Part shown: piece after piece, positions 4,977-59,614 of the stretch
Layout: each line of letters begins with the position of its first letter
Numbering within the stretch: position 1 is the first letter of the stretch
Assembly (NCBI GenBank): GCA_050010515.1
Contig: JBEKKX010000002.1
Span: forward strand, 1-64,000
DNA length: 64,000 bases
Reading direction: 5' to 3'
Source: Candidatus Bathyarchaeia archaeon
GTDB taxonomy: Archaea > Thermoproteota > Bathyarchaeia > Bathyarchaeales > Bathycorpusculaceae
Made by a program: the position numbers and the translations under genes
The notes under the pieces: model-generated
Database searches by the model: none
The model's input: the letters and a program-made list of their open reading frames with translations, nothing else
What the model was told of the DNA's origin: nothing

Positions 4977-5504
4977 ATGACAGAAGAAAATGATAAAGAA
5001 CAAGAAAATAATGAAGAAAATCAATCTATCCACACTCAAGAACCTGAAGAGGAATCCCCAGAGGAAAACGTAGAGAATGAGGAAAACTCAGATGTTGACA
5101 TAGACAATTCCGAAGAGACAAGTGAGGAAGAGCAATATCAAATAGAGCTTGAGAAGTGGTTCGCGGAACTTGAGAAACTGCACGGCGTACCCTTCGCTAA
5201 TGAGATGCGTAAGAAAATCCTTTTGGACAAGCAAATCGCTAATGAACTTGATTATATGGCTTATTCTAAACAGGCTCATGAAGATGCACAGGAAAGGCTA
5301 CAAGTAATCAGAGACCAAAACGATGCGCTTTTTGAGAGAACCCAGAAGTTAGTTGAACAAGCCACAAACCTAAACGCTAAGTCGTATGCACGATTTAACA
5401 AATTCTTAGATGATAGTGAAGTCCGCGACAAAGCATTGGAAAGTCAACTTAGCCAAATAATGGAACTTAAACGGAAAAAGTTGGAAAAGGACTTAGAAAA
5501 GTAA
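4977..5504 (+). CDS. Acidic N-terminus plus coiled-coil hypothetical protein
   Basis: E/N-rich first ~55 aa, helical C-terminus. Confidence 0.65.
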   Translation: MTEENDKEQENNEENQSIHTQEPEEESPEENVENEENSDVDIDNSEETSEEEQYQIELEKWFAELEKLHGVPFANEMRKKILLDKQIANELDYMAYSKQAHEDAQERLQVIRDQNDALFERTQKLVEQATNLNAKSYARFNKFLDDSEVRDKALESQLSQIMELKRKKLEKDLEK

Positions 5505-6107
5505 ATGCAACAACTCCAAACTTTAGAAATACTATGCCCTTTTTGTAATGATAGTACAGTTGTTCGGCATGGCTTATCCAACGATGGAAGCAAACAGCGA
5601 TTTATCTGTCGTTCATGCGGAAAGAACTTTTTTGTTTCCTTAACAACTTCACAAATTATCCAGCCTATTAAGCAACCAAATAGGCACCTGACAAGAAAAC
5701 CAACAGGGCAATCGGCAAGATTTAAAATGCTAATACCTATTCCCGATGACGTTAAATGCCCAAGATGTAATGGTGTAAGCCTTCAAAGGCATGGTAAATC
5801 CCCTAATGGAAAGCAAAGGTACTTTTGTAAAACTTGCCGAATAAAATTTGTTTTCGGCTTTAAATCTAATCAACAAAAAATGATGAGTAACAGAATAATT
5901 CACATGTCACATTTGGCAATTGATAATTGTATAGAAATACCTTGCTTTTTATGCCCAGATAACGACAAGATTTGTTCAACTCTTGAATGCGGCAAATTAT
6001 CAGCGTGGTTGAATAGTCCACCTATTCATGGGTATATCCCTAAAGTTGAGGAATATGAGTTAGGCGATACAGGAGAATTTGAAGATACATGGAGACGCAA
6101 TAGGTAA
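5505..6107 (+). CDS. Two IS1/InsA-type Zn ribbons fused to a TFEbeta/RPC34-like 4-Cys Fe-S motif
   Basis: Two CPxC..RHG....GxQRxxCxxC ribbons; C-terminal PCFLCPDNDKIC....CGKLSAW. Confidence 0.65.
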   Translation: MQQLQTLEILCPFCNDSTVVRHGLSNDGSKQRFICRSCGKNFFVSLTTSQIIQPIKQPNRHLTRKPTGQSARFKMLIPIPDDVKCPRCNGVSLQRHGKSPNGKQRYFCKTCRIKFVFGFKSNQQKMMSNRIIHMSHLAIDNCIEIPCFLCPDNDKICSTLECGKLSAWLNSPPIHGYIPKVEEYELGDTGEFEDTWRRNR

Positions 6108-6745
6108 TGTTTGACACAGAAACCCACGAAGCTAAACTACGAGAGCTTAACGAGCGTTATATAGCGGGCAAACTGTCACGGGAAGGCGTTCAAAATGAAA
6201 TTAGCTGTTTGCTCGGCGAAACGAATTTGGCTTTCCGACTTCAAAACCGTTTGCTTCAAGCGGTAAACGGGGAACTTTCCGCAAAGGGAAAAGAGCGTAT
6301 AAACTTGAAGCAATACCTTGCAAAATGTGGGGAAATAGAGGATTCAATTATTCAAAGCGAGTTTCCATTCGCATTTTTCCAAGAAGCAACCTTAGAAGAA
6401 ATCGAGGCGTTAGACCCTACCCTTTTCGACTCAAAAACCTTAATGCTTATCGTAATTTCGGCTCTTCGCATGTACATCGATAACGAACAAGAAAACGACC
6501 CTAAAGCTGAAGCTCTACATAAAATCTATCTTGAGCTAAAAATTTCGCTATGTGCTTTAATCCCAGAATTTCCGAAAGAGGATGGTTTTGTTGATTATCT
6601 GGATAACCGTGAATCTAAATTATTAGCCGAACAACTCAAACAAACAGGGGAAAAATGTCCGTATTGCTCAGGTACCCACATCCAGAAATATGGGCAAAAA
6701 AAGTTCAAATGTGTATCTTGCGGGCACTATTGGAGAACCAAGTAA
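6107..6745 (+). CDS. Helical protein with C-terminal Zn ribbon
   Basis: CPYCSGTHIQKYGQKKFKCVSCGHYWR. Confidence 0.65.
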   Translation: MFDTETHEAKLRELNERYIAGKLSREGVQNEISCLLGETNLAFRLQNRLLQAVNGELSAKGKERINLKQYLAKCGEIEDSIIQSEFPFAFFQEATLEEIEALDPTLFDSKTLMLIVISALRMYIDNEQENDPKAEALHKIYLELKISLCALIPEFPKEDGFVDYLDNRESKLLAEQLKQTGEKCPYCSGTHIQKYGQKKFKCVSCGHYWRTK

Positions 6746-6962
6746 CTTAGGGGATGTCATCATAGAATTGATGCATTCCCCTTTATGGTAATTGAAGAAA
6801 GTTGAGTAAGTAGCTCTATTCAAGCTGGTAGGGTGACGCTAACCAACTAATGGTCACGTTAGCTGACGAAGACGAAAGCAGATGGTCACTCTCTCTGTAA
6901 GTAGCCAATTAACTTTCTCCATTACAAATATTGACCTAAAAAAGAAGGAAAAAAATGAGGCT

Positions 6963-7073
6963 TTAACGGTTTGCTACGCTGTCGAGATAGCTGTTAGCCA
7001 TGTCAAGTTTAGAATTCGTTTTCCGCAACTCGGCTAAGATTTCTCTTAAGACCTCAAGTTCTTCAGTTGTCAT
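6963..7073 (-). CDS. 36-aa helical ORF coupled to integrase A
   Basis: ATGA overlap with integrase stop; MTTEELEVLREILAELRKTNSKLD...; followed by T tract. Confidence 0.5.
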   Translation of the reverse strand: MTTEELEVLREILAELRKTNSKLDMANSYLDSVANR

Positions 7074-8221
7074 GGCTCTTCACTCTCTTTATGTTCTTCT
7101 TTGGGTTCTTGTTTTTTGCCATTTTGGGTTTCCATTATTTTAGCGAATTCATAGACGCTTTTCAGTTGTTCTTGAATTTGCGGTGGCACCTTGCTTAACA
7201 TACCGTTCTGTTCCATGAATTCAATTAATGCCTTTTGCGCCTTAACATGTGATACGACCAAATCGGTTAAGATGTTATATTTCGCGTTTCCGTTAACCAT
7301 TTGGCTTAATGATAGGTGTGTTGGGTAGGCTTTTTGATATTTCTCATACGCACTTTTCTTTAAAGTTTGCAAATAAGTCGAATCAGTCACGGGTATTTCT
7401 TTACCAACTATTATCTTGACTTCCCAAGCGTTTAACCCCGCGTCACTTAAAGCATTCATAAGGTATTTGCGCAATAGGTGAAAGTGGACACGACCAATTA
7501 AGACAATATTTGCCTCAGTCGCCAAATTCTTAAGGATGTTGTTTAACTGTAGCTCGGTTAAGTCAAATAATTTCGTTTGATTTGGAGATTCTTTATTTAA
7601 CTTCATTATGTAGTTGTCTAAGCTGAAGATTGCCATAGGGTTAAGTATTCCGTAAACGGTAGCTCCCGTTTTTTTCCGTTGCCAATCAAAAGCGATAAAC
7701 TCAGAGTTTTGTGATTTGGTTCTTTTAACCAAGTTTTCTACAAAGTCTCTTTCCAAGTTGCCGAAAGACGAAACGTCCCACCCTAAACTTGTTGCCGTGC
7801 TAAGAATTGCCTTGTTGCGTGTGTCGGCTACCGCATACATGGCGCGAAGGTCAGCTATTGAGAAGATGTGTTCGCCTTTAGCCGCTTCCGCTTTAACAGT
7901 CTTTTTCTTTAAACCTCTAATCGGTTCTTTTTGGCTACTATAAAATGCTCTAACCGCATTAATGGGGAACCGCACGGAATTAGGCTTTAACGATTCGCCT
8001 TTAGGAGTCTTATAATCATTAACGAGGTAGTTTTGAAATGCTAAAAGTTGGCTCTTCGCCTTGATTTGGTCGAAGTTGTCTAACAGTTGCTTAGGAGTCG
8101 TTTTAGCCCATGAGCAGAAAAACTTGAAACTTGTTTCGTTTGCACTTTTCGTTTTAGGGTTTTGGTACTCGTTAAGCCATGCGCTCATAGGTAGCCACTC
8201 GTTTTGTTCTTGTTCATTCAT
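7070..8221 (-). CDS. Tyrosine recombinase/integrase (element A)
   Basis: RNKAIL...SLGWD, RKKT, HFHLLRKY (HxxR), IVGK...STY catalytic Tyr; N-terminal core-binding region. Confidence 0.85.
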   Translation of the reverse strand: MNEQEQNEWLPMSAWLNEYQNPKTKSANETSFKFFCSWAKTTPKQLLDNFDQIKAKSQLLAFQNYLVNDYKTPKGESLKPNSVRFPINAVRAFYSSQKEPIRGLKKKTVKAEAAKGEHIFSIADLRAMYAVADTRNKAILSTATSLGWDVSSFGNLERDFVENLVKRTKSQNSEFIAFDWQRKKTGATVYGILNPMAIFSLDNYIMKLNKESPNQTKLFDLTELQLNNILKNLATEANIVLIGRVHFHLLRKYLMNALSDAGLNAWEVKIIVGKEIPVTDSTYLQTLKKSAYEKYQKAYPTHLSLSQMVNGNAKYNILTDLVVSHVKAQKALIEFMEQNGMLSKVPPQIQEQLKSVYEFAKIMETQNGKKQEPKEEHKESEEP

Positions 8222-8278
8222 GTTTTATCAACTCCGTTTTTAAGATATGTTATGTCAAAAGGTGCTAATATAGGTTAG

Positions 8279-9634
8279 ATAGCAATAATAAAACTTTTCT
8301 TATCTATTGATACTTTTGGTCGAAAAACAATAGTTAACATCCCATCTGACTTGCACTTTCCAAGCGTAGACTCCGAAAATTTCAAAGTTTGGATAACGGA
8401 GTGGGCTTGCTTATCAGGTAAAACAAGAAAGGGGCTCAGGATAAAGAAGCTTCACATAGTCTGGTCAAAAGATCCTGTTCAGGACGATATACAGGGAATT
8501 GCTATAATTAGAGGGGGAATGGTTGTTGAGAGAATACCGATATCAGACCTTCTCATCGCTCCAGATCCTATTATTTCAAAGCACATATATGGATATGTTG
8601 AAGGGGACTTGGGTGTTCAACATAAACTGAAAGAATGCGAGGATCCTACACACTATCGATTCACAAAAAAGGCAGGTTGGGGTAACAAAAATATTTACCA
8701 AGCGATTAAAGATTACGTTGCAGCTCAAATGCAATATTTCTCTTCATCCAAACTCGGATCAACAATAGGTAAATCAGCCACTGGAGATTACGCTACACTA
8801 AAAGAATTTAATACCTTGCTGAAGTCCATAGGGATTGATGTTCTAACCCTTTCTCCACCGATACCCCCAAAGACGCAGCCGCAAAGAACGTTTCAAGTTT
8901 CCTTGAATAACGACCAAACAGATGGCCTCCAATTAGTTTTTCCAACCCCTGATTTTAGAAATCCGATTAAGCGTGTCGAGTTCAACGAGGAAATTACCAA
9001 TATACACGCAAAAATTCTGAATTCAACAAAGTCCCCAGCGCGAGTTCAATTAAGCATCTATACGGAACAAAACGAGACGAAAAGGGATACGCTAATTGAC
9101 AAAGAAATTACTGTATACCCAAATTACCCCACACACGTAAACCCGATGTCACTTAAGATAACAAAAACAGAATATGCTCAGGGAGAATGTCATCTAAGGG
9201 CTAAGATGGTTTGCTTGAATCATCCTGAACATAAGAAAGGTGAGGAATTGGAAATTATCTCGGTACGTTTCTGGATAGCTACTGACCCTCCTCTGGGTAA
9301 AGGTGCCTTCAGAGAAGTTCAGTATGTTCCAGAGGTAACAGAAGAGATAGATGGTGAGATAATAAAAATCGATGGTAAAGTGACGCCACACTCTTCAGGG
9401 GATGGAAATATCCTCTTGATCAATACCTCACATCCAATATACAAACAAAGGGTACCGTCAAGGTAGAACGAACAAGCAAGAAAAGACTACCTTATCGAAA
9501 TGATGGCTAAAAAAATTCCATTTGTGCTAATTTCCAACAACAGTGCGCCTTACAAGGATATTGAAGACCCTGAAGAGATTTTCAAGAGAATATCTGCTTT
9601 GTATTCAAAAATAATGGGCAAATACTTTGAATAA
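8279..9634 (+). pseudogene. N-terminally truncated protein with internal amber stop; resembles the C-terminal part of GHKL/HATPase-associated proteins
   Basis: Frame open from 8279 without a convincing start; TAG at 9464-9466 followed by 55 more in-frame codons to TAA 9632-9634; IAIIRGGM..IYGYV..EDPTH and INTSHPIY motifs. Confidence 0.55.
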
Positions 9635-9657
9635 TCGAGAAGCACCTGGAGTACAGT

Positions 9658-10317
9658 ATGGCAATAATTGTAGACAAAAACGGAAGACGAATTTACAAAA
9701 CCATTGGGTATTTAGCGTACGAAGATAAAGAGAACGCTGATAAGTTAGACAATTTCCTGAAAATTGAAATTAAACAAATAGAAAAAAGATTAGAACAAAA
9801 AGGATTACTTACACTTAAAGGAAAAAGTGGGTCAATCCAGTTTTGGTTTAATCTGGGTCTGGAACTTAGAGATTTATGGTGTAAGGTTAGGGCTACGTAC
9901 AATTTACCTGATACATTTTTACCATATTTCTTCAAAGCTGTTTTTGATAACTCGGATGCAGTGAAACCGCAATCGGGAAGGGCTGACAGACTCAAAAATG
10001 CCTACTTCTACTATGGCTATATTATAGCCGGCTTCCCTTGGGAGCAAGTTGCGTCGGCAGGGAGTTGGCGACAGTGGATTGAGTTCTTAGATGCGAGAAG
10101 GATTCGTACTGACCCACGAATTATTGAGTGGTTCGTACAAAGAAAGGTTATGGAATTGCAAAGGGGCACCAATCTTTCGAGAGAAGAATGGTTTAGACGA
10201 ATAACGCGTGAAATCAGATCAGAGTTTCATAACATTGACACTACAGTACTGTCCAAAGACGAGTTATATGACAGCTTAGATGAAATACTTTCCAGGGTTG
10301 TATCAAGATTACAATAA
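9658..10317 (+). CDS. Hypothetical protein, weakly DUF1016-N (YhcG N-terminal)-like
   Basis: FWFNLGLEL and GSWRQWIEFL segments; GGAG SD. Confidence 0.45.
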   Translation: MAIIVDKNGRRIYKTIGYLAYEDKENADKLDNFLKIEIKQIEKRLEQKGLLTLKGKSGSIQFWFNLGLELRDLWCKVRATYNLPDTFLPYFFKAVFDNSDAVKPQSGRADRLKNAYFYYGYIIAGFPWEQVASAGSWRQWIEFLDARRIRTDPRIIEWFVQRKVMELQRGTNLSREEWFRRITREIRSEFHNIDTTVLSKDELYDSLDEILSRVVSRLQ

Positions 10318-52330: not shown

Positions 52331-52972
52331 TTAGGTTTCCTGTTCACAGTTGCCCTTCGATTTTAAGCCTGTGGCTAAAAGGTACATTTCAGAGCTTTTA
52401 GCTCGGCTTGCCTGAGGCTTCACTATCTTAACTGTTTCAAAAAGATTCTTTGCTGTTTGGATAAAATCGTTGAGCAAGTTACCTTCAAAAACCTTAACAA
52501 AAAAGTTCCCTTTGGGCTTAAGTAGGCATTGAGCTATTTCTAATGCTTTAGTTGCTAAGTCAATTTGTCTTGCGTGGTCAACTTCCCAAACGCCAGTGAT
52601 GTTTGGTGCAGCATCAGAAATTACTGCGTCCGCTTCGCGAGGCAGAAACGAGCGTATTTCCTCGACTATGCCTGGCTCAGTGAAGTCTGCAATTATTGTT
52701 CGAATGTATTCCTGCGTGAAGGGTTCGATTGGTTTTAAATCAACGCCCAGAACAAAACCGTTTTTTCCAGTCATTTTTCTTGCTGCTTGAATCCATCCTC
52801 CTGGCGCAGCGCCTAAATCCACTACTACGTCGTCTCTTTGTATGAAACCATATTTCGCGTTGGCTTGAACTAGCTTGTATGTGGCTCTGGAGCGGTAGTT
52901 TTCTTCTTTGGCTTTTTTGTAGTAGTATTCCCGTTTTCTATCTTGGATCCAAGCTTTCGGCAAGTGAATCAT
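52331..52972 (-). CDS. rlmE: 23S rRNA methyltransferase RlmE/FtsJ
   Basis: YRSRATYKL, DLGAAPGGW, SDAAP, ASRAKSSEMY. Confidence 0.93.
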   Translation of the reverse strand: MIHLPKAWIQDRKREYYYKKAKEENYRSRATYKLVQANAKYGFIQRDDVVVDLGAAPGGWIQAARKMTGKNGFVLGVDLKPIEPFTQEYIRTIIADFTEPGIVEEIRSFLPREADAVISDAAPNITGVWEVDHARQIDLATKALEIAQCLLKPKGNFFVKVFEGNLLNDFIQTAKNLFETVKIVKPQASRAKSSEMYLLATGLKSKGNCEQET

Positions 52973-53366
52973 CCTCTTGTGTGCTTGGCGCGCTTGGACC
53001 CGCAGTAGTTGTGGCTTCTTTTCCTAAGCCGAGTATCCAATCTGTAAGTTTTGGGCAGCTTTTAGGTGAAAGTGCAGTTGTTGGGTCACACCTTTCATTG
53101 TCTGGGCAGAGTAAGCATGGGCAGTCAACGATGGTTTCTATCGATGCTGGAAGCCTTTTTGGGTAAAGCCTATATGTCCATCTGCCTTCTTGCAGTTCTT
53201 TTTCTCTGCGGATTAGGCCTTTTTCTTCTAGTTTAATGGAGACACGTGAGCCTTCTCGGCTGCTTGCGCCTAGTTCACGCCATAAATCGGATTGAAGCAC
53301 ACCTTGATAGCCTGTGTTTACTACATAATGGAGTGCTTTCTGTTCAAGGTCATTACGTTTAGGCAT
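52938..53366 (-). CDS. TFEbeta / RPC34-like transcription factor (wHTH plus 4-Cys Fe-S domain)
   Basis: GVLQSDLWREL..KLEEKGLIRRE..TYRL; PCLLCP...C...P..CPKLTDW. Confidence 0.8.
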   Translation of the reverse strand: MPKRNDLEQKALHYVVNTGYQGVLQSDLWRELGASSREGSRVSIKLEEKGLIRREKELQEGRWTYRLYPKRLPASIETIVDCPCLLCPDNERCDPTTALSPKSCPKLTDWILGLGKEATTTAGPSAPSTQEDDSLAESLDPR

Positions 53367-53412
53367 CTGATATCAATCCAAATAATGCAATTAGAATATA
53401 AGCGTTGAATCC

Positions 53413-53451
53413 AGATAAAAATATGTTTCCGTAGCTGTAGCTGTAGATAAT
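53413..53451. repeat. attL-like site AGATAA-AAATAT-GTTTCCGTAGCTGTAGCTGTAGATAAT
   Basis: Inner 27 bp are an inverted repeat (20/27) of 58522-58548. Confidence 0.7.
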
Positions 53452-53506
53452 ACATCAATTGACCCAGAATTCATAAAGCCTTTAACTTTTGAGGGGGGAA
53501 TAAAGG

Positions 53507-54742
53507 ATGAGTGACTTTACGGAAGCAAATGAAGAGTGGATTCTAAAATTCGAATCTGGAAAAAATTGGATTCCTAAACTGCCAAGCCGACATACAAAAC
53601 GCATTTTCATAAGAGCCTTACAGAAATACTGCCAAGCTGTCAAACAAAACCCAGATGAGCTAATCAACCTTAAAATCGAAGGCTTGAAAGCTGTAGCAAC
53701 AGAAAAGGAATTCGGAGCGGAACGACAGCTTGAAACCTACCTTAGAAACTCAGGTATGACTGACAGCGTTAAAGCTGAATCCAAGAATGCCATTATCAGC
53801 TTTTATAAACATAATTGGAGAAACCTTAACCCCAACGTTGCAAGCGATATAGAACCCCCAGAAGCTAAGAAGAGAACCCCGACAATAGAGGATATACAAG
53901 CCCTCGATGCTAACATGACTACTTCACGGGATAAAGCGTTAGTTTGGTTTTTCCCCTCAACTGCCGTAAGAATTGAAACTTTAACTAAACTGACTAAAAG
54001 AGACCTAAAGCCGACAGGTGACAGCGAAGTTCCCTATTACATGGAAATTGAAAGCGCGAGATTAAAAGGCTCTGGAATTGGAAAATATAAAGGCATAAAG
54101 CAAATAACTTTCGTTCATAAGTTGGCATGGCAGAGATTAGAAGATTATTTTGCAGAAGCTAAACGCAAAGGCTACAACTTAACCGATAGTTCGCCGTTGT
54201 TTATTGCATACAAAGGGCACTTCAGCAAAGAAGAAAAGAAATTAGCAGTTAAACCTAAAAGAATCCGAGTCATGACTCAGGGAGCAATCAATCAAGTGTA
54301 TGATAATGGGTCACTCTCCGCATGGAAAGATTTGGAACAGAAACGCTTTTCGCCTCATGATTTCAGAGATTTCCTTGAATCATCCCTTGAAAGTGCGGGA
54401 ATAGACAAAAATCTCAGAGACCCTATGATGGCGCACAAGGTCAGGGGAGTAGATAAGCACTATTCAAGCCATGAAATTTTGGAAATGAAAGATAAATACA
54501 AAACCGCATTGCCTTATCTGTTACCTCAATCTGTGGAGAAACTCAAAGCTGAAGCTGACAAAGTGAAAGAGGAAAATGAGAAAAGAATTAAATTTCTTGA
54601 ACAGCGACTTCTTGATAACGGTTTAAGTATCAATAAGATGCTCACAGACTTTAACCAGTTGAAAGCAACTTTTGAGGAACTGCAAAAACTGAAAGAGGAA
54701 GAGGAACGCAACAAACCAGAAAAGAAAAAGGTATGGGATTGA
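53507..54742 (+). CDS. Tyrosine recombinase/integrase (element B)
   Basis: RDKALV..STAVRIE (R), RLKG (K), PHDFR (HxxR), MAH...KHY (H, Y). Confidence 0.92.
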   Translation: MSDFTEANEEWILKFESGKNWIPKLPSRHTKRIFIRALQKYCQAVKQNPDELINLKIEGLKAVATEKEFGAERQLETYLRNSGMTDSVKAESKNAIISFYKHNWRNLNPNVASDIEPPEAKKRTPTIEDIQALDANMTTSRDKALVWFFPSTAVRIETLTKLTKRDLKPTGDSEVPYYMEIESARLKGSGIGKYKGIKQITFVHKLAWQRLEDYFAEAKRKGYNLTDSSPLFIAYKGHFSKEEKKLAVKPKRIRVMTQGAINQVYDNGSLSAWKDLEQKRFSPHDFRDFLESSLESAGIDKNLRDPMMAHKVRGVDKHYSSHEILEMKDKYKTALPYLLPQSVEKLKAEADKVKEENEKRIKFLEQRLLDNGLSINKMLTDFNQLKATFEELQKLKEEEERNKPEKKKVWD

Positions 54743-54750
54743 CTAAACCC

Positions 54751-54780
54751 CTTTTTCCTCTTTTCTTTCTCTTCTTTTCT
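54751..54780 (+). terminator. Pyrimidine/T-rich archaeal terminator after integrase B
   Basis: CTTTTTCCTCTTTTCTTTCTCTTCTTTTCT. Confidence 0.55.
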
Positions 54781-55218
54781 ATGTTTTTCGAATTAAACAG
54801 TAGCTTAAAAAGCCATAAACCGACAAAAAGTCAAAAACGTACAAGGGTAGTAGGGCATAATCCCAGCCTAAAATTTTTAATGGAAAATTATTTAAACGAC
54901 TTATAGCAATGCAACAATCATGATAAGCATTATTGAAAATATGCTTGTAACATTGAGAGATAGAGAACTTGAACTTGCAACCCAAGAATATGCTAAACGA
55001 TGCGATAAATTCACAGTTGAAACAAACGGCTTACTTCATCGTCATATTTCAGGCGTTTGCATTGTCCCCCATGTAGAAGTATCATCGAATAAAATTGCAT
55101 TACAAGGCAAATACCTCTAAATATGCAGTCATTTATGGGTTAGTTTTATCTTTTCCATATGGCAAATCAGGTTCTTAATTCTTAATCGAAGCTATACAGA
55201 TTTAAGATTGAGGGGTGA

Positions 55219-55470
55219 AGACCATTTAGAGGAATAGATGTAATAAATATTAACTCAGTTAACTTAAAATGCAGAGAATGTGGAAAAAACGCGAAATGGA
55301 TAGTTATAGACCAAAGGTACGGCGTAGACCTCAAAGAAGTCGCCGCCGCCGCAACAAAAGGAGTAATAGCCCCCCCGTACAACCAATACTTTTACCCTCT
55401 TTGTGAAGAACATTTTAACTTCTTAAAAGAAAGTAAACCTTCCATGCATATGGATTATTATTATATTTAG
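55219..55470 (+). CDS. CxxC...CxxH Zn-finger ORF lacking a canonical start (missed by ORF track)
   Basis: LKCRECGKNAKW...YPLCEEHF; possible ATA start 55243 after GAGGA. Confidence 0.4.
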   Translation, partial: RPFRGIDVININSVNLKCRECGKNAKWIVIDQRYGVDLKEVAAAATKGVIAPPYNQYFYPLCEEHFNFLKESKPSMHMDYYYI

Positions 55471-55537
55471 GCTCAAATCCTAATTAAACAACTGATTAAT
55501 TAAGCCAAATTGCCAAAAAAAAGAATGTTGTTGGTTG

Positions 55538-56065
55538 CTATTGAACTACAATAGTCACCAAATTACTGCTATACGTATTTCCATTGGCATCGGTAATAGT
55601 GCAATAGCCCTGATAAACTCCATTTCCAGCATTTTCATATAGGTCATTCCCATCTTCAAATTGATAGGTGACTGTATTCGTATTAGGAAAATTAGGGTAG
55701 GAAGGGTTGAGTTGGCTTGGTGACATGTTATAGACGTTTTCTTGTCCATAACTGTAAGTGCCTGTATGGAATTCTATGCTCTGAACAGGAGAAACATCTG
55801 ATACTTGCAGAGTAAATTGAGCAGTTAAGGCTATTCCATTTCCTTGCGGTATTGTCACCGTTTGAGTGTCAGGTGTTAACGTAACAGTTGGAGAACTATT
55901 AGCGTTTGAATTTCCAGAATTGCCTACGTTATTTGCATTATTTGAATTATGTGATGACCTATCTAAAATTAGCACTCCTACCAATGAAACAGCTAATATT
56001 ACTATTATCACGACTGCCAAAATCATATATTTATTAATTCTTTTAGTTGATAATGGTTGAGCCAA
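55538..56065 (-). CDS. Membrane-anchored extracellular beta-rich protein
   Basis: N-terminal TM, N/S-rich linker, Ig-like C-terminus (YCTITDANG..SNLVTIVV). Confidence 0.75.
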   Translation of the reverse strand: MAQPLSTKRINKYMILAVVIIVILAVSLVGVLILDRSSHNSNNANNVGNSGNSNANSSPTVTLTPDTQTVTIPQGNGIALTAQFTLQVSDVSPVQSIEFHTGTYSYGQENVYNMSPSQLNPSYPNFPNTNTVTYQFEDGNDLYENAGNGVYQGYCTITDANGNTYSSNLVTIVVQ

Positions 56066-56175
56066 TTGTATAACCTCTTACCGTATGCACTATGCCTTTC
56101 TTTCAGCTTATAAGTTTTGGTTCTGGTAACTTCACGTCATACGGTTTTTTCTGTTAACTGCCGTCTGAGACAGCT

Positions 56176-56505
56176 TCAAACGGTAGGATTTTTAGGTCTG
56201 ATGTCTGCGCCACATTTAGGACAGAAACTATTATCAGCGTCAATCCGACTGTTGCATTTTGGACATATAGCTAAGACTTTTTGGGTAGATTGGGATTGGG
56301 GATAAACTATGGTGGGCGCTTGAGCTTGAGGTGGATAATTGTATATGACTTGTTTTGGATGAGGTGATGTAACCAAACCAACTATAAGCATGATAAATCC
56401 AATAAATCCGCAAAGTGCGGCAAATGGAATTAATATTATTGTTAGGAATAGAAAAATGCCAACAAACATTAGAAAAAGTCCACCAATGATTAGCCCAGCT
56501 CTCAA
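56176..56505 (-). CDS. Two-TM protein with C-terminal Zn ribbon
   Basis: Hydrophobic hairpin; CPKCNSRIDADNSFCPKCG. Confidence 0.8.
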   Translation of the reverse strand: MRAGLIIGGLFLMFVGIFLFLTIILIPFAALCGFIGFIMLIVGLVTSPHPKQVIYNYPPQAQAPTIVYPQSQSTQKVLAICPKCNSRIDADNSFCPKCGADIRPKNPTV

Positions 56506-56587
56506 ACTGATTCCCTCAGTTTGCTTTATGTGGACATTTTAAATATAAAACTTGTCATGGATATTACTTCTGATTAAAAAAGAGGGG

Positions 56588-57307
56588 TTAAGGGTTCGGT
56601 TGCTGTTGCTGTGGTTCCGTCTTAGCTTTAATAGGTATCACGTAATGCCCTTCTCGTCTTTCATTAACAACGTATCTACCATTAAGACCCCTCATTTTCT
56701 GACCAATTTCGGCAAATTTGGAAGGGTCAAGCATTCGGTTTGGTTTAGCAATAATCAACTTAGCCTTACTGTCTATTGAAATGTCGAGCAGATTCTTAAT
56801 TTCTTCCAACTGTATGAGCGTAGGCTCGGCTAACTGTTTAAGATTTGCCTCTTCTTCTTTCGCTTGTTTTTCAGCTTCCACTTTCGCTTTTTCAGTTTCA
56901 ACCTTCTCTTCTAACGGTTTGTTTTGAGTGTTATAGGCTCGGATTCTCACCACTTCACACGGGTCTTTATTTGGAAAAGCTGTAGCCATTTCTTCCGCTT
57001 CTTCAGATGGTCTGCCGAGAAGAACGTATTGTTTTACGAGTTCATTATGAACATCCTTCTTTTTCTGAGCTTTAAGCGCGTCTTGTTCTGCTTTCGTCAT
57101 AGACCATTTTTTATATAACCTATCAAAAATTGCTTGTCCGTCCTTGCCTTGTTTATTCCAGAAAGCTATAAATTCGTCTTTGTGTTTCTCCATGAACTCT
57201 TTAACTAAAAAAGTAGCACTACCATAACCGCTGGGGTCAATTATTGAATCAAAACCTTCCCCTAACTCAGTTTCGAGAAATGTCGAAATACTGTGATTAT
57301 TAGCCAT
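56588..57307 (-). CDS. Element B protein with C-terminal domain homologous to host ORF 29806..30204
   Basis: IIAKPNRMLDPSKFAEIGQKMRGLNGRYV...GHYVIP. Confidence 0.75.
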   Translation of the reverse strand: MANNHSISTFLETELGEGFDSIIDPSGYGSATFLVKEFMEKHKDEFIAFWNKQGKDGQAIFDRLYKKWSMTKAEQDALKAQKKKDVHNELVKQYVLLGRPSEEAEEMATAFPNKDPCEVVRIRAYNTQNKPLEEKVETEKAKVEAEKQAKEEEANLKQLAEPTLIQLEEIKNLLDISIDSKAKLIIAKPNRMLDPSKFAEIGQKMRGLNGRYVVNERREGHYVIPIKAKTEPQQQQPNP

Positions 57308-57411
57308 GATTTTTTCACTTCCATTTTACTTATCTGAATACATACGATACACGACCCACATATAAACTTTTGGCAAGAAACAACATCTTCATTTAAACTT
57401 TTCCAAGCCAA

Positions 57412-57497
57412 TTAATCAACTGATTAAATGAAATAGACAGCAAAATGTCAACGCCTCATCCATGCCAAAAAACACAGAAATTTAACCAACTGATTAA
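57412..57497. repeat. Pair of 16-bp palindromes TTAATCAACTGATTAA and TTAACCAACTGATTAA
   Basis: Same motif as at 64-79, 157-172 and 55484-55499. Confidence 0.85.
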
Positions 57498-57509
57498 AAA
57501 AAGCCCAAA

Positions 57510-57557
57510 AACGTCCGAACATGTGAACGTCCGAGCATATGAACGTTTTTTCATATG
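57510..57557 (+). repeat. Three tandem 16-bp iteron-like repeats
   Basis: AACGTCCGAACATGTG / AACGTCCGAGCATATG / AACGTTTTTTCATATG. Confidence 0.7.
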
Positions 57558-58263
57558 AAACACCCGACCAAAACCTAACCCCCCACTACCCACCCCCCGC
57601 ACTAAGCGGGGCAAACCCCAAAACAACACCCTCTCTTCTTTTAGAACAGCCGAGAGTAAGATAGTAGATTCAACTGAGTAGATTAGGTTAGAATAGAATA
57701 GCTATGGGTAGGGAAGGGGTAAAAGGGGAAACCAATAGGCATACCCGCGCTAAGTCGTCCGACACACACACACCGCCCCCGCGCAACACACACATAACAA
57801 AAAATGATAAACAAATGCAATCATTAACCGAAAGTGTTAATCATCGAGCACCCAGAACGAACCAACAAAACAAGCACATAGAACCCAGAAAAAGCCATGC
57901 CCATGTTTACCTTAATTCAGGAAAAAAAGATACTGCCTTGCGTTTTCATGAATCGAACTCCCCGCCTATCTGTACCCCTGAACAACAGCAACTCCTGAGC
58001 GTCCGCCCTCGCTGGAAAAATACCCATTTTTTAAAATTTCTGGGTTCGATTTTTATGGATGGGATTCCCCATTTTATTTGGCTTGGAAGAATTCCTTGCC
58101 CAAAATCATTTTTTGAGCAAAATCAAGGGTATGTAGCTTAAAGGCTAAATTGGGCTTGTTTTGCCAATTGAACACGTGTTCTACAGTTATTTGGCATTTC
58201 AAGCCCAGAATAGCCTTTAAATATGGGTTTTGCATTGCTATAAACATAAACGAAGTTGGAAAA

Positions 58264-58491
58264 ATGACAGCAACCCCAGAAAAAAACCAAATAATAAAGC
58301 AACCGAAACTTAGCTTAGCACAACGCTTTAAGAAATGGCTAAATGGGGAATATTATAAGGCACCAACAAAAGAAGAAATACAAGAAGCTGAAGAGTTGGA
58401 GCAAGAAGCTAAAGAAGACGAAATAGAGGATTCGCAAGGGGACGGATTAATGAGCGAAGGGGATATTATGTTCCCTGAGGAGATTGAATAA
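58264..58491 (+). CDS. 75-aa protein with acidic C-terminus (element B right end)
   Basis: ATG 58264 downstream of TATA-like CTTTAAATA (~58215). Confidence 0.6.
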   Translation: MTATPEKNQIIKQPKLSLAQRFKKWLNGEYYKAPTKEEIQEAEELEQEAKEDEIEDSQGDGLMSEGDIMFPEEIE

Positions 58492-58521
58492 ATGAGCAAC
58501 TTAGAAATAGCCAAAAAGCGA

Positions 58522-58560
58522 ATTATCTACAGTTGCAGAAGTGGATACAAATATGTATCC
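58522..58560. repeat. attR-like site ATTATCTACAGTTGCAGAAGTGGATAC-AAATAT-GTATCC
   Basis: GGATAC/GTATCC perfect inverted repeat around the 6-bp core. Confidence 0.7.
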
Positions 58561-58579
58561 CTTAAAAAACTTGGAATCC

Positions 58580-59614
58580 ATGAAAAACATGCAGAGCAAG
58601 CAGCGAAAAGATGAAAATTACTGTTTAGGCATAGAATCTTCAGCAGACGATTTTGGCGTTGGAATAGCCGCCTTCAACGGAGAAATACTCGCCAACAAAT
58701 CCGACAGTTACATACCAGCAGAAGGCGGAATCCACCCTAGAGAAGCAGCAAGGCACCACTCTGAAGTTGCTGATAAAGTGCTAAGCGACGCCTTAACGGC
58801 GGCGGGCGTGAAGCCAAGTGACTTGTCGATTATTGCGTTTTCTCAGGGTCCAGGTTTAGGACCATGCTTGCGCACAGGTGCTACTGTTGCCAGAGCTTTG
58901 GCGTCATACCTTGAGGTTCCGCTAGTGGGTGTTAACCATTCTGTGGCGCATATTGAGATTGGAAAACTAAAAACTGGCGTTGTTGACCCAGTGACCCTTT
59001 ACGCTTCAGGCGGCAACACCATGGTGACAGCTTTTGAGGCTGGACGCTACAGAGTTTTCGGTGAAACCTTAGATATTGCCCTTGGGAACTGTTTGGACGT
59101 TTTCGCTCGGGAAGCGGGTCTTAAGCACCGGAAGGGTTTGCCGCTTGGAGCTGCCGTGGAGCGGTTGGCAGCTAATGGGAAAAGGCTGGTTTCTTTGCCG
59201 TATGTTGTGAAGGGCATGGACTTATCCCTTAGCGGCTTATTGACTGCGGCGACAGCTCAGCTGCATAGGGGCGATTGCTGCTTGGAGGATTTGTGTTATA
59301 GTCTTCAGGAGAACGCTTTTTCGATGGTTACTGAAGTTACTGAGCGCGCGTTGGCGCATACGGAGAAGAAGGAGGTTCTGTTAACAGGAGGGGTAGCAGC
59401 CAATAAACGGTTGCAATCCATGCTTGCTGTTATCGCGGAGGAGCATGACGCACGGTTCAGTGTGGTTCCGCTTGAGTTTGCAACTGACAACGGCGCCATG
59501 ATTGCTTGGACAGGCGTTTTAGCTTACAGGCACGGGGTAGTTACGCCTTTGGATGAGAGTTATGTGAAGCTGCGTTGGCGGGTGGATAAGGTGGATGTTC
59601 CATGGATACAGTAG
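58580..59614 (+). CDS. kae1: KEOPS t6A synthase Kae1
   Basis: LGIES, GGIHPREAA, GPGLGPCL, VNHSVAH, SGG, DNGAMIA; start ATG 58580 or 58589. Confidence 0.95.
   Translation: MKNMQSKQRKDENYCLGIESSADDFGVGIAAFNGEILANKSDSYIPAEGGIHPREAARHHSEVADKVLSDALTAAGVKPSDLSIIAFSQGPGLGPCLRTGATVARALASYLEVPLVGVNHSVAHIEIGKLKTGVVDPVTLYASGGNTMVTAFEAGRYRVFGETLDIALGNCLDVFAREAGLKHRKGLPLGAAVERLAANGKRLVSLPYVVKGMDLSLSGLLTAATAQLHRGDCCLEDLCYSLQENAFSMVTEVTERALAHTEKKEVLLTGGVAANKRLQSMLAVIAEEHDARFSVVPLEFATDNGAMIAWTGVLAYRHGVVTPLDESYVKLRWRVDKVDVPWIQ

Follow-up and report, generated by a model that had tools for sequence, protein, structure and literature searches.

A reading frame across the attP of a Bathyarchaeia integrative element and its possible role in coupling integrase translation to the circular state

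To our knowledge, little is known of how archaeal mobile elements control their integration and excision. The genome of a Bathyarchaeia archaeon from peat carries an integrative element of about 5.13 kb with a divergent tyrosine integrase, and a preliminary description of the sequence had proposed that excision of this element would assemble a new reading frame across attP and thereby couple an operon at its right end to the integrase gene. The locus thus raises the question whether such a frame exists, whether it is kept in related elements, and whether it might tie the translation of the integrase to the circular state. The question is addressed here with the 64-kb window, i.e., the whole stretch of 64,000 nucleotides that was analysed, and with related elements from Bathyarchaeia MAGs of peat and similar habitats.

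The element, its insertion site and its integrase

The element (5,130 bp, window positions 53419-58556) lies between a gene for a winged-helix (wHTH) protein of the host, located beside attL on the minus strand (52938-53366) and divergent from the integrase gene int, and the host gene kae1 on the plus strand (58580-59614), which codes for a member of the TsaD/Kae1 family (family match with E = 5e-80) and is followed by a gene for a bud32-like kinase. It is bounded by two plus-strand copies of the 8-bp core AAATATGT, one at attL (53419-53426) and one at attR (58549-58556), the latter placed by the repeat and by a metagenomic joint described below. The core occurs twice in the window (starting at 53419 and 58549) where 3.3 copies would be expected, so that its number would not by itself be remarkable; a plain search for repeats around the element missed it, and no tRNA gene that might serve as target is present in the 64-kb window.

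The assignment of the att sites in the preliminary description stands not by this count but because of the empty sites in relatives, the 8-mer shared by elements at the same site and an exact joint in a metagenome. Orthologues of the wHTH gene were found in 40 of the 41 genomes searched, and in 17 of 19 loci fetched from relatives this gene directly adjoins kae1 with the site intact and empty; one of the two remaining loci (G004) carries a related element and the other is cut by the contig end. The empty site in the 17 loci has the sequence that results from joining the left half of attL to the right half of attR. A related integrase resides at the kae1 site in six other genomes of the genus (63-85% identity over the matched parts), and the same 8-mer bounds all five same-site elements whose contigs reach kae1, with element sizes of 2.7-10.1 kb. 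Finally, a metagenome contig from run X19 joins position 53418 to 58549 exactly, the eight letters fitting both sides. End repeats together with a matching empty site in relatives, as expected for a site-specific integrative element, are therefore both present.

The depth of the empty-site contig in run X19 is 44 as compared to about 3 for the element, and because the depth of the element in runs X9, X11 and X19 (about 3-7) is far below that of its flanks (70-360, over window positions 53300-58700), it is carried by a minority of the population. Runs X9 and X19 also contain a smaller same-site relative with 1,823 other letters between positions 53553 and 58514. Many metagenome contigs with these integrases (loci L075-L147) stop 140-280 nt upstream of int and hence near att, as is to be expected from insertion polymorphism. 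One contig that is placed in the genus (locus L155, on the same contig as G066:C57) bears a public bacterial name (Limnocylindrales), which is probably a binning or labelling error.

The integrase gene (53507-54742, plus strand) codes for 411 amino acids and is intact in the integrated state. In an alignment with 14 relatives the residues R155, K187, R287, H310 and Y319 are invariant while position 284 is H or Q, which corresponds to the catalytic order R, K, H-x-x-R, H/W, Y of tyrosine recombinases. The window protein taken alone matches PF00589 with E = 0.019 and 15.1 bits, below the cut-off of 27.1; the same model matches 8 of the 14 relatives (best E = 9.2e-9), a model of archaeal XerA matches 9 of them, the XerA structure 5hxy from the PDB is matched by the integrase profile with E = 9e-4, and a precomputed PF00589 domain is annotated in most of 142 relatives from the database. 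Taken together, the family is clearly recognisable from its sequences as one of tyrosine recombinases. A relative at E ≤ 1e-20 is present in 33 of 120 genomes of the genus, and no close relative was found in viral contigs, where the profile gave one distant match of 25%. An extension of the protein at its N-terminus is ruled out by an in-frame stop two codons upstream of the int start.

Downstream of int the element carries small cargo ORFs of 57, 66, 175, 109 (with a zinc ribbon), 239 and 145 aa (54733-58141), followed at the right end by a gene for a 75-aa protein with an acidic C-terminus (58264-58491, plus strand); neither the cargo ORFs nor the 75-aa gene gave a lead in Pfam, PHROG or Atlas. 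Elements with other cores likewise have the 75-aa gene at their right end, and its product retains the acidic C-terminal motif DSQGDGLM...FPEE. Its position, together with a fusion to int that is seen in mini elements (see below), suggests that the protein may be a recombination helper.

The core itself lies within a 17-nt motif, ATAAAAATATGTATCCC, which is found unchanged upstream of kae1 in each of the 17 relatives with an empty site and ends at a distance of about 24 nt from the ATG of kae1 (window 53402-53426 and 58549-58579; loci L003-L020). This motif is probably the BRE/TATA of kae1. Once the element is inserted, the host half of the motif points toward int, and kae1 receives its upstream half from the element. 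Because the presumed kae1 TATA thus remains at attL in the direction of int, the integrated copy may be transcribed from it and hence may not be silent.

A reading frame across the joined ends

At the right end of the element, a frame begins with an ATG at 58492, immediately behind the TAA (58489-58491) of the 58150/58264 ORF, and comprises this ATG plus 21 codons up to and over the core (58492-58556, plus strand). At the left end, 31 open codons and a TGA follow from the core onwards (53419-53514, plus strand), and this half is devoid of in-frame ATG, GTG and TTG codons. Joining the right to the left end at the core in silico yields a 50-codon ORF which runs in frame over the core and the TGA of which (53512-53514) overlaps the integrase ATG at 53507 by 8 nt (ATGAGTGA), just as had been described before. 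The different peptide that had been proposed for the integrated state was likewise borne out, since the ORF there extends for 40 codons to a TGA at 58612-58614 (58492-58614, plus strand), the last 19 codons and the stop being derived from the host, and overlaps the kae1 start (ATG at 58580) out of frame. On the attL side, the host codon that precedes the core in the junction frame is a TAA (53416-53418); the copy belonging to the element has TAC at this place.

The 75-aa gene ends directly before the ATG of the junction ORF, so that the right-end operon is compact. A TATA-like box (TTTAAATA, 58216-58223, plus strand), recognised from its sequence, precedes this operon and aligns with a conserved TTTATATA in G004, in a second element of the same genome (on contig C5) and in G130; the promoter that had been proposed at about 58215 thus coincides with a putative and conserved box.

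For a comparison across relatives, 24 distinct related Bathyarchaeia elements were modelled, with att sites taken from empty sites, exact repeats or palindrome scoring. Exact repeats of at least 11 letters gave att sites for some elements only and a palindrome-scored search added more; weak palindrome calls, in which the top score is near the second, were left out except for L114 and L061, which were flagged. In 18 of the 24 elements an ORF that begins with ATG passes through the core in frame and terminates at the int start (at +1, +5 or -2), the overlaps at +1 being of the TTGA, ATGA or GTGA type. These elements comprise about ten different cores, all six elements at the kae1 site and the second element of the same genome, and the openness of homologous junctions, on which the preliminary description had made its proposal depend, is thereby largely corroborated. 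Stops, frameshifts or a crossover elsewhere were mostly not found, the frame being broken in four of the 24, all of them visibly decayed copies: a mini element of 1,462 bp in which int is fused to the next gene, a copy in which a deletion of about 30 nt took out the left arm of the attP repeat, and two remnants of 2.5-2.8 kb in which int is interrupted. Two further elements were not called because of a doubtful core (L071) and an unclear int start (L064).

Three copies with a damaged int (G115, G097 and L134) retain the junction ORF, and its presence is therefore no proof of activity; recent decay leaves the ORF in place, and close relatives are not independent.

The second element of the same genome (G000, contig C5, locus L024, about 5199-9868) measures 4,670 bp and has a core of 14 bp and an integrase with about 50% identity. 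It shares the right-end gene, its junction ORF is intact and overlaps int by a TTGA, and its attR lies directly against the stop codon of a host gene that runs convergently. The mini elements of 1,462 bp (L065, 912-2385, in G075; also L095 and L169) have a junction frame that is broken by one base, and their int ORF continues in frame into a C-terminus which resembles that of the 75-aa right-end protein; they are either decayed copies or a minimal form with int only.

Under a strict definition, with an ATG at most 90 nt before the core, an open frame over the core and a stop within -2 to +5 of the int start, the junction ORF is present in 12 of 13 elements, as compared to 1.0-5.4% of trials with shuffled sequences; in the one exception the ORF starts further upstream. 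The in-frame ATG recurs about 50-70 nt before the core, and in several lineages the ORF has a length of 47-50 codons. A longer attP-crossing ORF of about 100-115 aa is found in L061 (G092) and probably in L064 (G085), where the last right-end gene itself runs across the junction and ends on the int start.

A second comparison was made independently of att sites, using the 150 nt upstream of 133 int starts from all fetched loci, which fall into 24 clusters at 75% identity. In 20 of these clusters a frame with a stop overlapping the int start is open for at least 27 codons, whereas the fraction in shuffled sequences is 0.21 and in the real DNA of the window 0.195 of 6,515 stop-to-stop intervals reach that length. 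With the clusters treated as independent, the binomial tail probabilities are 1e-10 (p = 0.21) and 6e-7 (p = 0.33), figures which overstate the significance because the lineages are homologous. The open frame is not the same one in all lineages, and the remaining non-int frame is short. The distance from the start of the core to the int start is 88 nt in the window and 85-89 nt in 11 of 16 elements.

Among same-site elements, the variable columns of the junction ORF are spread over the three codon positions (15/49, 12/49 and 11/49), whereas int shows the usual excess at third positions (73/113, 52/113 and 100/113). Because the three positions vary equally, the junction peptide does not appear to be under selection. 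At the DNA level the junction region is variable in 38 of 147 columns as compared to 225 of 339 in int; the junction peptides of different lineages have no common motif beyond that imposed by the conserved DNA motifs, and a Pfam search of the junction ORF gave no match. Judged from these alignments, it is the openness, the length, the overlap, the SD-like motif and the mostly TTG start of int that are kept, and not the peptide, as would be expected if the frame matters by being translated and not by its product.

On the attL side, no in-frame ATG is present in 15 of 16 elements and a host stop lies at most 26 nt from the core in 13 of 16, while in-frame TTG or GTG codons occur in 10 of 16. Runs of at least five T between core and int, possibly archaeal terminators, are found in 7 of 16 elements and are absent from the spacer of the window.

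A check on the att calls that is independent of the ORF is provided by the fold of attP. The in-silico attP forms an imperfect inverted repeat in which arms of about 25 bp flank a short AT-rich core, the left arm at 53425-53451 pairing with the right arm at 58523-58548 (both on the plus strand, from folding) once the ends are joined. The predicted fold of the window attP, with the ends joined by script, has -31.2 kcal/mol and a z-score of -6.2. Relatives with different arm sequences and cores have equivalent long inverted repeats, and in a copy without the left arm (L066) the fold is lost. An inverted repeat around a core has the look of the core-type binding sites of tyrosine recombinases, and the left arm is probably a core-binding site of the integrase.

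Signals at the integrase start and readings of the junction frame

Over the 24 clusters the start codon of int is TTG in 17, GTG in one and ATG in six. In the window an SD-like motif (GAGGGGGGA, 53491-53499, plus strand) lies 8 nt before the int ATG, and relatives have GAGGTGA, GGAGGTG or GAGGGG 6-9 nt upstream of int. These motifs fit the 16S 3' end of the genus, ending in GGATCACCTCCT, which was taken from two closed genomes of the genus since no 16S was found in the window's own assembly. Further upstream there is a CTTTAAC box (53480-53486, plus strand) about 25 nt before the int start, with a YTTTAA counterpart in nearly all relatives, which is possibly a TATA box or a protein site; this box or the strong SD-like motif could also allow for an independent expression of int. 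Termination-reinitiation is associated with co-directed ORFs whose stop and start overlap (-4, -1 or -8), often with an SD inside the upstream ORF; overlaps at +1, +5 or -2 are present in 20 of the 24 clusters. In a study in Haloferax and E. coli, 13 of the 14 overlapping stop/start pairs tested are reported as strictly coupled (PMC6728339).

On this basis we consider it fairly probable that translation of the integrase is coupled to the circular form of the element. The right-end operon would then be read in the circle as one unit from the TATA-like box at about 58216 through the 75-aa gene and the junction ORF into int, and ribosomes that end the junction ORF at the overlapping stop and start would reinitiate at the int start, which is usually a weak TTG behind an SD-like motif. 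The hairpin of -31 kcal/mol that is modelled inside the junction ORF could hinder ribosomes; according to the proposed mechanism, translating ribosomes would melt the attP hairpin in the mRNA and would keep the leader translated. Upon integration the coupling would be lost because the ATG-bearing half is removed: it would lie 5 kb away and read into host DNA, and the left half would be shut by a host stop and would be without an ATG. Integrase synthesis in the integrated state would then drop to the level allowed by the SD and by local or host promoters, the net effect being a burst of integrase in the circle, favouring integration or reintegration, and low integrase when the element is resident.

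More tentatively, the start may be physically split throughout the family, the ATG and the leader being supplied from the far end only via circularisation, so that the state of the element would be read at the ribosome and not at the promoter, and the core at the kae1 site would at the same time be the TATA of an essential host gene. If this were true, element and host would swap promoter halves at the kae1 site with each integration, the host half facing int and the element half driving kae1.

A joint of the circle was not seen among the contigs of four runs, which carries little weight as contigs drop rare forms. Likewise, no intact attP palindrome about 85 nt before int was found in 79 metagenome and 33 genome loci, there were no terminal overlaps of at least 14 letters among contigs longer than 2.5 kb, and in 80 loci int was not directly preceded by a 58264-like gene. 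Among the sequencing runs listed as containing the stretch, none was of RNA.

Other readings of the junction frame differ in what they take to be its function. It could encode a functional small protein, complete only in the circle and acting as a state-specific regulator or recombination helper, with the coupling to int being secondary. The topology is that of promoter, attP-containing ORF and integrase gene in mycobacteriophage BPs, the repressor of which is split at attP (PMC3694055; PMC4557955, as far as these reports were considered here), and both the ORF of about 100-115 aa spanning attP in L061/G092 and probably L064/G085 and the length of 47-50 codons held in several lineages are in line with a protein product; the lack of a third-position excess and of any constraint on amino acids, the missing common motif between lineages, the differing frames and the missing Pfam match nevertheless make such a protein quite unlikely. 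That the integrase is instead made mainly from its own or a host promoter and its SD in both states, the junction ORF merely modulating expression, e.g., by preventing premature termination or hairpins on read-through transcripts, and not acting as an on/off switch, appears unlikely as well. In its favour are the YTTTAA box and SD-like motif conserved in almost all of the 24 clusters, the host motif, which is retained at attL and lies invariant about 24 nt before kae1 in the 17 relatives, and the example of ICEKp1, which is described as using an adjacent host promoter when integrated and a promoter from its 3' end when excised (PMC13023037). However, transcription from a TATA box located about 25 nt upstream of the start would imply a leaderless mRNA, on which a conserved SD would be useless and to which the TTG starts in 17 of 24 clusters are poorly suited, and this reading leaves unexplained why the upstream frame is open and ends on the start.

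The open frame might, on the other hand, be a by-product of integrase sites, the inverted repeat and regulatory boxes, kept by chance and shared ancestry. Junction DNA is indeed more conserved than int (38/147 as compared to 225/339 variable columns) and has no coding signature, and the overlap is partly imposed by the integrase itself, since int begins with M-S in all relatives, so that TTGAG or ATGAG automatically gives a TGA at +1, with AGTGA or AGTAA giving a stop at +5. What such an origin does not account for is that openness persists across clusters with less than 75% nucleotide identity and about ten unrelated cores and arms, through frame switches and indels, in 20 of 24 clusters where a fraction of 0.2 is expected and in 12 of 13 elements where 0.01-0.05 is expected, and that the other non-int frame is short while an in-frame ATG recurs about 50-70 nt before the core; a mere by-product is therefore very improbable.

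Known systems and possible significance

It is known from the circle junction promoters of IS911 and IS30 and from the sib retroregulation of lambda that the state of recombination can change the signals linked to a recombinase gene, the IS circles acting at the level of promoter assembly and sib at that of mRNA decay. We know of none among these that uses a reading frame across the junction. In ICEclc, circularisation places the outward signal Pcirc from the far end before int, which is reported to yield more integrase and is thought to favour reintegration (PMC5812530). The orientation of the putative right-end promoter would fit such a Pcirc-type outward signal, co-oriented with int after joining, and the element would in this respect resemble ICEclc and ICEKp1 (ICEEc1), for which a far-end outward signal joined to int by circularisation has been described (PMC5812530; PMC13023037); like ICEKp1, the integrated copy here may in addition borrow a host promoter at attL (PMC13023037). 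In contrast to these bacterial examples, which are transcriptional switches established by experiment, it is an archaeal reading frame over attP, overlapping the start of int, that points here to a translational link.

As in the mycobacteriophages BPs, Brujita and their relatives, attP lies in the modelled junctions inside an ORF directly upstream of and co-oriented with int. In the BPs type, this ORF is reported to be transcribed together with int, and integration to alter its C-terminus and to part int from the upstream promoter (PMC3694055; PMC4557955); in the parts of these reports covered here, the ORF that is split codes for a repressor and loses a degradation tag, whereas the junction ORF has about 50 codons, no amino-acid conservation, no DNA-binding domain and a stop that overlaps the int start. 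With the 'suicidal' archaeal integrases of the SSV1 type the element shares a frame that is intact in the circle only and has attP within it (PMC8371274, as far as covered). In that type it is the integrase gene which is split, whereas the chromosomal int of the present element is intact with 411 aa and has the core 88 nt upstream; the element thus does not belong to the SSV type, and its split ORF forms a mini-gene of its own upstream of int. In SNJ2, a haloarchaeal pleolipovirus, a tyrosine integrase also has overlapping small genes upstream, with which it is reported to be co-transcribed (overlaps of 8 and 20 bp; PMC5861418). There, unlike here, the att core is described as lying against the C-terminal coding sequence of int, and integration leaves the operon unsplit (PMC5861418).

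The titles and abstract openings listed in literature searches gave no description of an attP-spanning ORF coupled to int, nor of these Bathyarchaeia elements, and a 2021 review of archaeal tyrosine recombinases discusses split integrases and promoters, and no circle-dependent coupling in its parts covered here (PMC8371274). The same parts of the review and those considered of the SNJ2 study (PMC5861418) report no arrangement of this kind. By analogy, we are inclined to view the arrangement as an archaeal, translational variant of the promoter switching of ICEs and of the integration-dependent immunity of mycobacteriophages. Both ideas, that of the ICE promoter switch and that of attP within an ORF, would then be extended to archaea and to translation, and a testable model would be at hand of how a minimal element might be biased toward the integrated state without an excisionase, in a compact integrase/att system from an uncultured lineage. 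The signature, a frame which stays open over attP and terminates on the start of int, at a distance of about 88 nt between core and int, would moreover mark active as opposed to decayed elements and locate att sites with cores too short for repeat finding.

In two loci (L053 and L182), a long palindrome with a score of 15.5 and arms of about 33 nt lies about 144 nt upstream of a fragmentary int, beyond the usual att position. The cores of relatives are mostly AT-rich, TATA-like words (e.g., ATTTAAG.., TTAAGAAT.. or ATATTTAAATATAAA..), which hints that this integrase family may favour promoter-like or intergenic AT-rich sites over tRNA genes.
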